Shown here: in pieces, positions 58,538 to 62,819 of the stretch
Numbering within the stretch: position 1 is the stretch's first letter
Layout: each line of letters starts with the position of its first letter
From: Magnetospirillaceae bacterium
GTDB taxonomy: Bacteria; Pseudomonadota; Alphaproteobacteria; Rhodospirillales; Magnetospirillaceae
Assembly: GCA_041685145.1 (NCBI GenBank)
Contig: JAWLGJ010000007.1
Location: 3,513-67,512 of the forward strand
DNA length: 64,000 nt
Direction of reading: 5' to 3'
Notes under the pieces: generated by a model
What the model was told of the DNA's origin: nothing
What the model saw: only the letters and a program-made list of their open reading frames with translations
Database searches by the model: none
Program-made: the position numbers and the translations under genes

Positions 58538-60139
58538 ATGTCCGAGCCGCTTCGCGACCTTGCCCGTGAATCCAACGCCTGGCCGTTCCAGGAGGCGCGC
58601 GCCCTGCTGGACAAGCGCCTGAAGGGCGGGGCGCCCGAGAAAGGCTTCGTGCTGTTCGAGACCGGCTACGGCCCCTCGGGCCTGCCCCATATCGGCACCT
58701 TCGGCGAGGTGGCGCGCACGGAATGGGTGCGCAACGCCTTCCATCGCCTCGCCCCCGACATTCCCACCAAGCTGTACGCCTTCTCGGACGACATGGACGG
58801 GCTGCGCAAGGTGCCCGACAACATCCCCAACCGCGAGATGGTCGCCCAGCACCTGGGCAAGCCGCTGACCGCCATTCCCGACCCCTTCGGCACGCATGAG
58901 AGCTTCGGCCACCACAACAACGCCCGCCTGCGCGCCTTCCTCGATTCCTTCGGCTTCGAATACGAGTTCCAAAGCGCCACCGACTGCTACCAGAGCGGCC
59001 GCTTCGACGACGCGCTGCTGGCGGTGCTGCGCCATTACGACGCGGTGATCGACGTCATCCTGCCCACCCTGGGCGAGGAGCGGCGCCAGACCTACAGCCC
59101 CTTCCTGCCCGTCTGCCCGCGCACCGGCCAAGTGTTGCAGGTGCCGGTGGTCGAGCGCGACGCCGAGGCCGGCACCATCGTCTATCGCGACGCGGACGGG
59201 CGGCTGGTCGAGACGCCGGTCACCGGCGGGCGCTGCAAGCTGCAATGGAAGTGCGACTGGGCCATGCGCTGGTACGCGCTGGGTGTCGACTACGAGATGT
59301 CGGGCAAGGATCTGATCCCGTCGGTGGAACTCAGCTCGCGCATCTGCCGCATCCTGGGCGGGCGGCCGCCGCAGAATCTGACCTACGAGCTGTTCCTGGA
59401 CGAGAACGGCCAGAAGATTTCCAAGTCCAAGGGCAACGGCATCGCCGTCGAGGACTGGCTGCGCTACGCCCCGCCGGAGAGCCTGGCGCTGTTCATGTAC
59501 CAGGCGCCCAAGCGCGCCAAGCGGCTGTATTTCGACGTCATCCCCAAGAACGTCGACGACTACCTAACCCATGTCGCCAAGTTCCGCGAACAGGACGCGG
59601 CGGCGCGATTGCAGAACCCCGCCTGGCACATCCACGACGGCGCGCCGCCGGCCGAGGCCGAATCGCCGCTCGGCTTCGGGCTGCTGCTCAACCTGGCCAG
59701 CGTCTGCCACGCCGAGGAACCGCAGGTGCTGTGGCAGTTCATCCGCCGCTACGCACCCGAGGCCGGCCCCGCCACCCACCCGCTGCTGGACCGGCTGGTC
59801 GGCCACGCCGTCGCCTATTACCAGGACTTCGTCAAGCCGGCGAAGACCTACCGCGCGGCCACCCCCGCCGAGGCGGCGGCGCTGGCGGAACTGGCAGCGG
59901 AACTGCGGGCGCTGGGGCCGGGGGCGGAAGCCGAGGCCTTCCAGAACGCCGTCTACGAGGTCGGCAAGCGCCACGCCGAGACCTTCCCCGACCTCAAGGC
60001 CTGGTTCAAGGCGCTGTACCAGATTCTGCTGGGGCAGGAGCAGGGGCCGCGCATGGGCTCGTTCATCGCCCTCTATGGCGCGGCGGAATCCATCGCGCTG
60101 CTGGAAAAGGCGGCGGCGGGGGAGGATTTGTCGGGCTGA
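58538..60139 (+). CDS. lysK: class I lysine--tRNA ligase
   Basis: HIGH-type motif [10 protein letters not shown] and KMSKS-type KISKSKGNG. Length and pattern match the class-I LysRS found in alphaproteobacteria and archaea. Confidence 0.92.
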
Positions 60140-60144
60140 GGGCC

Positions 60145-60900
60145 TCAGCCCTGGCGCATCGCCCCGATGCCGGCGCCCACCTCCAGGCCGCCGAACCAGT
60201 CGAGGAAACGGCGCACGTCCTCGCCCCGGAACAGCTTGCCGTGCTGCGGCGCCATGATGTCGATGTCGAGGCGCGAGACCATGCCGATCCAGGCGTCGCG
60301 CGCCTGCGGCGAGCCCATCCAGCGGCGGTGGAAGCCTTCCATATAGGCGACGTGGCGGTTGAAGTCGTCGACGAACAGGCTGTCGGCCTCCTCCGGCGGC
60401 ACCAGGGCGGCGCCGATGTCGCCGCTGAACAGCACCCGCGCCTTGGGGTCATAGACGACATAGCAGCCCGGCGAGTGCAGATAGTGGGCCGGCAGGATCT
60501 GCAGGGCGACACCGCCCAGGCGCACGGTGGTTCCCTCGTCGGGAATCTTCACCATGCGGGCGTCGCGGTCGAAATGGCTGATGAAGCCGGTCCACATCCA
60601 CGGCACCAGCACCTCGAGATTCGCGCCGCACATCCGCCGCCACAGCGGCAGCGACGACGACACGTCGGGATCCTGGTGCGACAGGAACAGATGGCTGATG
60701 CTGTCCGCCGGCACCTCCTGCGTCAGCGCCGCCAGCATGGCCGGGAACAGTTCCATACCGCCCGGATCCAGCAGCATCGTCTGCCCGCCGACGCAGACGA
60801 CGCACTGGTTGGTATCGATGATGTTGTCGGGGCGGTCGGGGTCGCGCGCGAAGACCAGCCAGCGGTGGTCGCCGTCGCGGTAGATGGTGCTGCCTTTCAT
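60145..60900 (-). CDS. metallo-beta-lactamase-fold protein resembling the di-iron domain of flavodiiron proteins (ODP-like)
   Basis: 251 aa. FDP-like ligand pattern SH75-Q-D77-P-D79, LH142SPG, FSGD161IG, PQH220G; the fourth residue of the HxExDH motif is Val. GGGAG 8 nt before the ATG. 36-nt gap to the upstream gene. Confidence 0.7.
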   Translation of the reverse strand: MKGSTIYRDGDHRWLVFARDPDRPDNIIDTNQCVVCVGGQTMLLDPGGMELFPAMLAALTQEVPADSISHLFLSHQDPDVSSSLPLWRRMCGANLEVLVPWMWTGFISHFDRDARMVKIPDEGTTVRLGGVALQILPAHYLHSPGCYVVYDPKARVLFSGDIGAALVPPEEADSLFVDDFNRHVAYMEGFHRRWMGSPQARDAWIGMVSRLDIDIMAPQHGKLFRGEDVRRFLDWFGGLEVGAGIGAMRQG

Positions 60901-60936
60901 GCCCTGCTCCCTGTCCCCGATTGCTGGCCCGTTGCC

Positions 60937-61638
60937 TCAGCCATGCGCGCGCCGGCAGGCCGCCGCCACGGCGCGGCCTTCGTCCTGGGCGCGGCGCACG
61001 GCCGTGCCCGCCGTGGCCGTCATGTCGCGAAGTTGCCCGACATAGTCGCGCATGGTCTGGGCGACGGTGCGGAATTCGGGCTCGTGGCGGCCGGCGCCCG
61101 AGGCCTCGATGGCGATGTTGGTGGCGATGCTGTCCGAGGCCGACACCACGCTTTCCACAGCCCGAGCCTGGGCGGCGAGGGCCTCGACGGAATCGACCAT
61201 GCCCAGCACCGTTTCCTCCATGCTGGCCATCAGCCCCGCCTGCGCCGCGCTCACCGCCTCCAGCGAGCGCCCCTGCCGCTCCAGGGCGGCGACGGTGCGC
61301 TCCATCAGCCGCAGCTCGTGGATGAAGCGCAGCCCGGCGGCGGCGAAGCGGTAGCTGTCATGCATCACCGCCGCGCAATCGGTCTGCGCCTGCGCCAGGC
61401 GGTTGACCAGTTCGCGGGTGTACTGGGTCAACGCCCGCACGGCGCGGCCGGCGTCGCCCGCGCGCCCCGCCACCAATTCGGCGTTCAGCGACAGAATGCG
61501 CAGGTTCTCGGCAAGTTCCTGAAGGTCGGTAAAGGCGTGGAAGGCCTTGACGGTGTCTCCGAACAGGACGGAGACCCGCGCCTCCAGCGCGTCCACCCCC
61601 CCGCCACGCTCGCCTACGCCGCGGGCGCCCTCGGCCAT
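60937..61638 (-). CDS. soluble all-helical protein with two chemoreceptor (MCP) signalling-tip-like motifs
   Basis: 233 aa, GGGAG SD. LRILSLNAELVAGRAGDAGRAVRALTQYTRELV and SIATNIAIEASGAGRHEPEFRTVAQTMRDYV each resemble LLALNAAIEAARAGE.GRGFAVVA.EVR.LA. No TM segment. Confidence 0.65.
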   Translation of the reverse strand: MAEGARGVGERGGGVDALEARVSVLFGDTVKAFHAFTDLQELAENLRILSLNAELVAGRAGDAGRAVRALTQYTRELVNRLAQAQTDCAAVMHDSYRFAAAGLRFIHELRLMERTVAALERQGRSLEAVSAAQAGLMASMEETVLGMVDSVEALAAQARAVESVVSASDSIATNIAIEASGAGRHEPEFRTVAQTMRDYVGQLRDMTATAGTAVRRAQDEGRAVAAACRRAHG

Positions 61639-61664
61639 GCAATGCTCCCTCTTCGTACCAAAGT

Positions 61665-61693
61665 ACCCTATCGGAATTTTTCCCGAATTGTAA
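61665..61693 (-). promoter_or_regulatory. candidate promoter for the MCP-like/ODP-like operon, with a palindrome in the spacer
   Basis: Minus strand reads TTACAA (61693-61688), 17-nt spacer, TAGGGT (61670-61665). The spacer holds the imperfect palindrome TCGGGAA-aaa-TTCCGA (61671-61686). Confidence 0.3.
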
Positions 61694-61760
61694 GGGAATG
61701 CGCCATCTGTTCAGGACGGGTGCTTTCGGCTAGGGTCCGGCCCACGGTGGGAGGCCCGAA

Positions 61761-62819
61761 GTGATCGACACCTATCCCCTGACGGGACCATTGCTGCGGC
61801 TGTTGGACCCCGAACGGGCGCACGCGCTGGCGGTGTGGGCGGCCGCGCGCGGCCTGACGCCGCGCCAGCGCGCGCCCGACCCGCCGCTGCTGGCCTGTCG
61901 ATTGTGGGGGCGCCGCTTCCCGAACCCCATCGGCCTGGCGGCGGGCTTCGACAAGGACGCCCGCGCCGCCGACGCCCTGCTGGACATGGGCTTCGGCTTC
62001 GTCGAAATAGGCACCGTGACCCCAAAGCCGCAGCCCGGCAACCCGCGCCCGCGCATGTTCCGCCTGCGCGAGGACGGGGCGGTCATCAACCGCATGGGCT
62101 TCAACAGCGGCGGCGCGGCGGCGGCGGCGGCGCGCCTGGCGCGACGGCAACGGCGCGGCGTCGTCGGCGTCAATCTGGGCAAGAACAAGGACACCGCCGA
62201 CGCCGCCGCCGATTACGAAAGCGGCGTCGAGGCCTTGGCGCCGCTGGCCGATTATGTGGTCATCAACGTCTCGTCACCGAACACGCCGGGGCTGCGGGCC
62301 CTGCAGGGGCGGGCGCCGCTGGAGGCGCTGGTGGCGCGGGTGCGCGCCGCCCTCGACGCGCGGGTGCCCGAGGCGACGCCGCCCTTGCTGCTGAAGGTCG
62401 CCCCCGACCTGACCGACGACGACCGCGGCGACATCGCCGCCGTGGCGCTGGCGGGGGGGCTGGATGGCCTGATCGTCACCAACACCACCGTCGGGCGGCC
62501 GCCGTCGCTGCGCTCGCGCCACCGCGACGAGGTTGGCGGCCTCAGCGGCCGGCCGCTGTTCGCCCTGTCCACCGAGGTATTGTCCGACCTCTACCGCCGC
62601 ACCGAGGCCCGCCTGCCCATCATCGGCGTCGGCGGCATCGCCTCCGGCGCCGACGCCTATGCCAAGATTCGCGCCGGCGCCTCGCTGGTGCAGCTTTACA
62701 CCGCCCTCGTCTATCAGGGGCCGGCGCTGGTGGGGCGGATCAAGACCGACCTGGCGCGGCGGCTGGCGGCGGACGGCTTCACCTCCGTCGCCGAGGCCGT
62801 CGGCGCCGACCACCGCTGA
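61761..62819 (+). CDS. pyrD: quinone-dependent dihydroorotate dehydrogenase (class 2)
   Basis: GGGAGG 6 nt before GTG 61761. GLAAGFDK, GFGFVEIGTVTP, NVSSPNTPGLR, GVGGI. Confidence 0.93.
   Translation: MIDTYPLTGPLLRLLDPERAHALAVWAAARGLTPRQRAPDPPLLACRLWGRRFPNPIGLAAGFDKDARAADALLDMGFGFVEIGTVTPKPQPGNPRPRMFRLREDGAVINRMGFNSGGAAAAAARLARRQRRGVVGVNLGKNKDTADAAADYESGVEALAPLADYVVINVSSPNTPGLRALQGRAPLEALVARVRAALDARVPEATPPLLLKVAPDLTDDDRGDIAAVALAGGLDGLIVTNTTVGRPPSLRSRHRDEVGGLSGRPLFALSTEVLSDLYRRTEARLPIIGVGGIASGADAYAKIRAGASLVQLYTALVYQGPALVGRIKTDLARRLAADGFTSVAEAVGADHR

Follow-up and report, generated by a model that had tools for sequence, protein, structure and literature searches.

A soluble mini-chemoreceptor with two tip-like motifs, encoded beside an ODP oxygen/iron sensor in the Magnetospirillaceae

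Chemoreceptors are regarded as obligate homodimers, in which two identical tips form the module that controls the kinase. The locus described here, which lies in a 64-kb window (the whole stretch of 64,000 nucleotides that was analysed) from a member of the Magnetospirillaceae, raises the question of what a receptor-like protein might do, and how it might be folded, when two tip-like motifs stand in one short chain. The protein, P0001, has 233 aa and departs in this respect from the one-tip-per-chain layout of MCPsignal proteins; both of the peptides that a sequence-only reading had likened to the MCP tip are present, at residues 44-81 and 167-203, and both match the tip profile. That reading went on to propose an internal duplication of the tip and a single-chain four-helix bundle, or else a chance similarity in an Ala-rich helix. 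Judged by analogy with ODP systems already published, P0001 would most likely serve to carry the O2/Fe(II) state of an ODP sensor, encoded by the neighbouring gene, to CheA/CheW.

The gene for P0001, a sensor-less, soluble, two-tip mini-chemoreceptor, was defined from its open reading frame and translation and occupies positions 60937..61638 of the minus strand. Direct reading of the sequence shows a strong Shine-Dalgarno element, AAGAGGGAG (61645..61653, minus strand), 6 nt before the ATG. The partner gene P0002 (60145..60900, minus strand; 251 codons) follows downstream after a gap of 36 nt, in the same orientation; it encodes an ODP (PF19583) and was assigned through Pfam, through matches to solved ODP structures and through its recurring adjacency. 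To judge by translation, the unit has a class-I lysyl-tRNA synthetase-like gene as one neighbour and a dihydroorotate dehydrogenase-like gene as the other, and since the first is convergent and the second divergent, P0001 and P0002 form a two-gene operon. An 839-codon frame on the plus strand (59245-61764) covers parts of lysK and the entire ODP/mini-receptor operon; it was rejected as a gene, being a shadow frame typical of very high-GC DNA. P0001 has neither a transmembrane segment nor a sensor domain: no hydrophobic segment was found in it, the maximum Kyte-Doolittle mean over 19 residues being 0.97, and Pfam and NCBIfam give weak MCP matches alone. There are no che genes within the 64-kb window and none beside the operon.

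The identity of the partner follows from several matches. P0002 scores 232.9 bits (E 3.7e-69) against the Pfam ODP family, for which the cut-off is 27.2, and aligns with the solved ODP structures 6QRQ/6QWO (E 1.3e-66) and 6QNM/6R9N (E 6.6e-58). The metal-site motif HQDPD is kept, sHQDPDV lying upon tHQDPDV in the alignment with 6QRQ, and on these matches P0002 is a bona fide ODP di-iron O2/Fe(II) sensor. The pairing is moreover a recurrent one, 49 of 80 related species loci having an ODP gene directly downstream in the same orientation. A second, paralogous pair of mini-receptor and ODP occurs in the same genome (contig C82, about 54.8-56.3 kb; L081 2305-3021 and 3041-3832), where the receptor, P0129, is 44% identical to P0001 in the best local alignment and its partner is an ODP of 263 aa. 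In the distant relative P0164, which is 21% identical to P0001, the ODP gene lies 18 nt downstream. Beside the P0164 pair stand a Fur-family regulator gene and an AurF/DUF455 di-iron-oxygenase-like gene (L082 1506-4973), flanking genes that hint at an iron-related neighbourhood.

The two-tip protein also occurs without a downstream ODP, in 31 of the 80 species loci (L026-L036, L041-L046, L067, L069-L072 and others), and six genomes with such a locus, from Magnetospirillum spp., Novispirillum, Haematospirillum and Insolitispirillum, have no ODP gene anywhere. The neighbours of these orphan members are not conserved. Members of this kind indicate that another partner can take the place of the ODP, or that the protein can act by itself. 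Many of the orphans are about 231 aa long and have a shortened central region. In Magnetospirillum sp. LM-5, an orphan member is adjoined by a 320-codon frame (L029 1738-2700, minus strand), which we take, from the look of its sequence alone, to resemble a phage major capsid-type protein.

The family to which P0001 belongs comprises about 281 homologous clusters at 90% identity, 42 of its representative clusters being recovered at E<1e-10, and its members are 215-270 aa long. Within the order it is restricted to a single GTDB family, that of the window, where 16 of 25 genera carry it, as against none of the 16 other families. Named sequences were contributed by Magnetospirillum, Paramagnetospirillum, Phaeospirillum, Telmatospirillum, Novispirillum, Haematospirillum, Azospirillum-like and Terasakiella genomes. 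A superfamily search that started from the distant member P0164 returned four proteins and did not deepen the alignment.

Two blocks of P0001 are strongly conserved across this family. Block 1, at residues 33-81 (61396..61542, minus strand), is near-invariant in alignments of 37 and of 110 sequences and contains tip-like motif 1, with the consensus LSLNAELxAGRAGDxGRAVRALTQYTRELVNRL; it aligns to positions 43-96 of the Pfam MCPsignal profile and to the tips of Aer and Tsr. Block 2, at residues 164-206 (61021..61149, minus strand), has near-invariant flanks and a variable turn in the alignments, and contains tip-like motif 2, with the consensus SIATNIAIEAxxAGxHExEFRTVAxTMRxYV. The second block is as conserved as the first, and the motif 1 signature AGxxG...LTQ survives in relatives of only 21-24% identity (P0164, P0184). 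The motifs are centred at about residues 62 and 184, an offset of 122 residues, and the two halves are joined by a variable loop at residues 122-126 (61261..61275, minus strand), recognised from gapped alignment columns and non-helical in the AlphaFold2 (AF2) models; insertions and deletions in the family cluster at residues 122-128. As for a methylation region, the family alignment varies most at residues 85-160, and relatives do not keep the one EE pair that P0001 has there (141-142).

Scanned whole, P0001 matches MCPsignal (PF00015) at 26.2 bits (E 8e-6), with residues 40-162 lying on positions 43-166 of the 172-position profile, a score below the gathering cut-off of 34.6 bits; the genome-wide six-frame search gave 21.1 bits, and a precomputed PF00015 tag is present on many relatives. 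No single match spanning the whole protein in the normal hairpin register was returned; such a match would have counted against the two-tip proposal. When the halves are scanned separately they fall on one and the same part of the profile: the N half matches positions 43-96, and the C half (residues 124-233) matches positions 13-95, which include the same tip region, at E 0.11. The C halves of two out of three other family members also match MCPsignal (E 1e-4 and 5e-4), and for three of the four proteins tested, P0001 among them, it is the top Pfam match of the C half, at the same profile positions. A profile built from 22 C halves (A2) and searched against all PDB sequences ranks MCPs first (Aer, E 2.2e-4; PcaY, 2.2e-3; Tsr, 6e-3; TM1143, 0.014), and its register is exact, IaTNiAiEAaaaGahEkeF being aligned with LALNAAVEAARAGEQGKGF of the MCP tip. 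Furthermore, the full-length family profile aligns as two separate domains to one same tip, in Aer and again in Tsr. By these comparisons each motif independently matches the MCP hairpin tip in the same register, through matches that are individually weak yet consistent.

How the two motifs are arranged in space is the point at which the structure prediction and our preferred reading diverge. AF2 was run twice on P0001, with the 37-sequence and the 110-sequence alignments (pLDDT 91.5 and 94.0; pTM 0.81 and 0.85; all five models of the second run at 92.8-94.0), and both runs gave an all-helical protein with helices 13-35, 39-121, 127-180 and 183-232 and breaks at residues 36-38, 122-126 and 181-182. 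These models place a U-turn at motif 2 (residues 180-182), as the sequence-only reading would have it, whereas motif 1 is modelled within a straight helix of 83 residues (pLDDT 96-98 there). From the helix lengths we infer a three-helix bundle (68-121, 127-180 and 183-232) capped end-on by an arm of 13-35 against 39-61, with the Gly-rich segment 58-66 probably at the junction of the two sub-bundles. Foldseek comparison of the model with the PDB returned generic helical rods and no MCP; single-chain four-helix bundles (maquettes) matched at TM 0.37-0.47 and ClyA at a query TM of up to 0.58, in agreement with a model more complex than a plain bundle of four helices.

Should the AF2 fold be right, motif 2 would be the sole hairpin tip and motif 1 a straightened segment in the middle of its 83-residue helix, the whole forming an asymmetric rod of a three-helix bundle and an N-terminal hairpin cap (13-35, 39-61). 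The invariant surface of motif 1 would then either be exposed for the binding of ODP, CheW or CheA or take part in dimerisation, and P0001 would still be an ODP-cognate adaptor, though not a pseudo-dimer of tips. We judge this somewhat unlikely, while taking it seriously: the two runs agree with high scores, the break at 36-38 is backed by Pro at position 38 or 40 in many homologues, and the closest structures, ClyA for example, are themselves long asymmetric rods. Against it stands a strictly conserved GxxGxxG that the rod would place inside a helix, at the junction of the sub-bundles. In the weighted alignment, Gly58 is kept by 86%, Gly61 by 98% and Gly64 by 99% of sequences, and residues 58-66 hold a mean of 2.9 Gly, compared with 1.3 in the motif 2 turn. 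Paralogue turns read GRTGDGGR or AGEKGAGV, the full canonical tip signature AGExGxG(F/V); in P0129 the turn of motif 1 is GRTGDGGR and that of motif 2 is EATWHGGYGQHF. Motif 1 also keeps both canonical tip flanks in register.

The pattern of hydrophobic residues and the spacing of the motifs bear on the same choice. Helix 39-60 reads as having two hydrophobic stripes (39/42/46/49/53/56/60 and 48/51/55), like an MCP bundle helix; on this pattern a two-helix arm cannot bury both, and the AF2 rod leaves the second unburied. Tip 1 stands about 61 residues from the central loop and the loop about 60 from tip 2, with outer arms of about 48 and 47 residues, pseudo-symmetric lengths that correspond, as far as spacing can tell, to the symmetry expected of two side-by-side hairpins. 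Over-extended helices are a recognised failure of AF2 on coiled coils, and the near-invariant blocks gave AF2 little co-evolutionary information here, because they hardly vary. Together with the covariation described next, these features suggest, though they do not decide, that motif 1 is a turn after all.

Covariation was analysed by mean-field and pseudo-likelihood DCA on 213-245 sequences (effective number 91-106), and both methods recover the contacts common to either fold, 65-121/127-180, 127-180/183-232 and 65-121/183-232. Of the top 100 pairs, 9 fall in the band i+j=125±3 that links residues 39-60 with 65-121, where 0.6 would be expected (P=1e-8, naive), a figure that we rejected as proof of the fold; it is mostly a conserved-block artefact, the naive enrichment being large because all conserved-block positions covary between subfamilies, and the pair sums of block 1 are spread like those of random pairs. 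In a block-matched test, restricted to residues 42-58 against 65-79 (254 pairs) pairs within 2 of i+j=125 still have the higher scores, though the signal is weak, with Mann-Whitney p=0.0014 (mean-field) and 0.035 (pseudo-likelihood) from about 106 effective sequences. The same test at centres 113, 117, 121, 129 and 133 gave no significance, and after correction for the six centres tested the mean-field result alone remains significant. This register-specific signal counts against the AF2 fold and could arise in two ways: a single chain may make a U-turn upon itself (in cis) at residue 62/63, or two extended chains may swap in antiparallel orientation.

No covariation was seen for the packing of helix 13-35 on helix 39-61 (i+j=74) that AF2 predicts, and this absence also weighs against the rod, to the extent that a method of low power here can tell; the undisputed hairpin 127-180/183-232 is itself barely enriched, from which that low power is evident. 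On the course of helix 13-35 the data are divided, since the top single pairs (15/19-180, 33-164, 38-158) suggest that it folds back toward the tips, whereas the band averages suggest that it continues in line with helix 39-60. On balance we consider the side-by-side arrangement somewhat likelier than the AF2 rod. The single-chain four-helix bundle of the sequence-only reading accordingly survives in part, with the Gly signature, the arm symmetry and the weak covariation on its side and, against it, models that turn at motif 2 alone.

Our preferred reading, held tentatively and with a confidence that falls a little short of even, is that P0001 is an ODP-cognate soluble mini-receptor of two diverged tip modules, whose hairpins pack into a four-helix tip that docks to CheW/CheA. 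Its cognate partner in signalling would be the O2/Fe(II) sensor, the ODP whose gene lies 36 nt downstream; with no sensor domain and probably no adaptation (methylation) region, P0001 would consist essentially of two diverged MCP hairpin-tip modules 122 residues apart. Both modules would form helical hairpins that pack together, in one chain or by an arm swap between two chains, and would so rebuild the four-helix tip that otherwise needs two receptor subunits. The rebuilt tip would dock to the CheW/CheA of one of the cell's chemosensory arrays, where an O2- or Fe(II)-dependent state of the ODP bound to the mini-receptor would shift kinase activity. Motif 1 is probably the array-docking hairpin, because its canonical turn, RAGDxGR, is kept and invariant; motif 2 is probably a structural or ODP-facing hairpin, because its flanks alone (NxAIEA...F..VA) are kept and its turn is variable.

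The link of this mini-receptor to chemotaxis can be approached through the genomes that carry it. All family-bearing genomes examined are chemotactic, and the window's genome encodes about 12 canonical MCPs and contains three or more chemosensory (che) clusters. Among the 81 related loci scanned (L001-L080 and L082), a che cluster adjoins a family member in one, from a metagenome-assembled Rhodospirillaceae (L078 2995-6585), in which the mini-receptor gene is followed by an ODP gene, a 224-codon frame that encodes a putative histidine phosphotransferase (ChpT-like), and then cheA. The CheA of this locus is 87-88% identical, over two aligned segments, to the CheA of the C47 cluster in the window's genome. 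Elsewhere in the window's own genome (G000:C26:153297-156283), three consecutive CheW-domain matches fall in one 1133-codon frame directly after an MCP gene; the product looks like an unusual multi-CheW protein.

P0001 might instead have no link to chemotaxis and be an MCP-tip-derived helical scaffold or regulator, coupling the ODP, or another partner in ODP-less genomes, to a different output such as c-di-GMP or transcription. Such a reading draws on the absence of che genes from the window and from 80 of the 81 related loci scanned, on a Pfam MCPsignal score below threshold, on the six genomes that keep the gene without any ODP, and on the reported linkage of ODPs to other signal-transduction genes too (PMC7319448). 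We nevertheless find it improbable, because the array-docking signature of motif 1 has stayed almost unchanged while the family diverged to about 21% identity, every family-bearing genome examined is chemotactic, one locus is contiguous with cheA, and an action on CheA is published for the ODP partners Tm14 and TDE2496. Given its place just upstream of the ODP gene, P0001 is probably the adaptor of that sensor to the chemotaxis machinery.

That the tip was duplicated within the gene, as the sequence-only reading proposed, rests mainly on both halves matching one same outside profile, the direct evidence for a repeat being weak. Self-alignment of the single sequence gave z=1.8, which is not significant; hhalign of the N half against the C half chose another register with 37 sequences, again without significance, and with 213 sequences found the tip-to-tip register, i to i+122, over 92 columns (P=0.012, 3.6% probability), and the duplication is not statistically established by these direct comparisons of one half with the other. 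The idea that the second motif arose by chance in an Ala-rich helix, P0001 being an ordinary truncated MCP hairpin, is largely refuted and very improbable, for although the self-alignment and hhalign values just given allow it and the Pfam match at residues 40-162 is colinear with a normal MCP, block 2 equals block 1 in conservation, MCP tips, in exact register, head the PDB matches of the C-half profile, MCPsignal is the top Pfam match for three of four C halves at the same positions, and a tip at residue 62 of 233 would leave a normal single hairpin with about 100 C-terminal residues unpaired. The C-half Pfam, C-half PDB and full-profile matches tie the second motif statistically to MCP tips, and on this evidence it is not a chance resemblance. 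A little more tentatively than the role proposed above, we suggest that the family may be a natural single-chain pseudo-dimer of the receptor tip, in which a tandem duplication fused two subunits, hairpin 1 keeps the canonical docking turn and hairpin 2 has been freed for ODP binding or for breaking the twofold symmetry, and which, as a minimal monomeric counterpart of a receptor dimer, would plug a soluble O2/Fe(II) sensor into CheA/CheW arrays without an adaptation region.

If this is true, the presence of two unlike tips in a single natural chain would reveal which of the tip contacts are required twice and for which one copy suffices, and no smaller kinase-control unit would be known, an advantage for structural work and in the design of synthetic sensors. 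It would also explain how a soluble di-iron O2/iron sensor is wired into the arrays of microaerophilic Magnetospirillum-type bacteria, a group in which the mapping of aerotaxis receptors is still poor (PMC12442639). Should the AF2 fold prove right, a receptor tip would have been re-used as a straight binding helix, which would also be new, if of narrower interest.

Pairs of an ODP with a sensor-less receptor are known from Treponema denticola (TDE2498/TDE2496) and Thermotoga maritima (ODP/Tm14), the source study for both reportedly being that of Muok et al. (2019, PNAS 116:14955). ODP and MCP genes can share an operon, and two gene orders are then seen (PMC7319448), and TDE2496, which has neither transmembrane nor sensor modules, modulates CheA and probably inserts into arrays (PMC7666581; for the pairs, PMC7666581 and PMC7319448). 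Because the partner gene here is an ODP, a point that the sequence-only reading had missed, the present system is a variant of this published one: like TDE2498/TDE2496 and ODP/Tm14 it couples the gene for an ODP di-iron sensor with that for a small cytoplasmic MCP homologue devoid of transmembrane and sensor domains, and like the Tm14 and TDE2496 genes that of P0001 is adjacent to its ODP gene on the same strand, with a gap of 36 nt. Tm14 (structures 3G67/3G6B) is matched by the tip profile once, in mid-chain of a 213-residue construct, as expected of a dimerising single hairpin; P0001, by contrast, carries two tip-like motifs within its 233 residues, which leaves no space for an extended adaptation region. 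TDE2496, which we compared by its description, may share the two-tip layout. Literature searches returned no natural single-chain, pseudo-dimeric or two-tip receptor, in agreement with the sequence-only reading, which took the arrangement to be undescribed for natural chemoreceptors, and an earlier description together with TDE2496 is possible. The pairing of an ODP with a sensor-less soluble receptor is hence known, and the double-tip partner is, as far as searches show, new. Amb0994 and CetA2/CetB2 of magnetospirilla were considered as the same system and rejected, being a PAS-based bipartite receptor and unrelated.

Compared with the canonical MCP signalling domain (PF00015; Tsr, Aer, TM1143), the tip consensus NAAIEAARAGExGRGFAVVAxEVRxLA is recognisable twice in P0001, motif 1 keeping RAGDxGR and the xxRxLxxR flank and motif 2 keeping NxAIEA and F..VA. 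P0001 differs from the canonical form in its sub-threshold score, in having no HAMP, transmembrane domain or ligand-binding domain and, so far as the alignment shows, no conserved methylation helices, and in carrying two tips per chain. Engineered single-chain or foldon-fused fragments of receptor tips, from the Crane laboratory, reconstitute core signalling units. P0001 resembles these constructs in placing receptor-tip helices in one polypeptide as a soluble kinase-control module; unlike them, since they are laboratory-made, it would, with the fold proposed here, be a natural and diverged example, conserved throughout a family.
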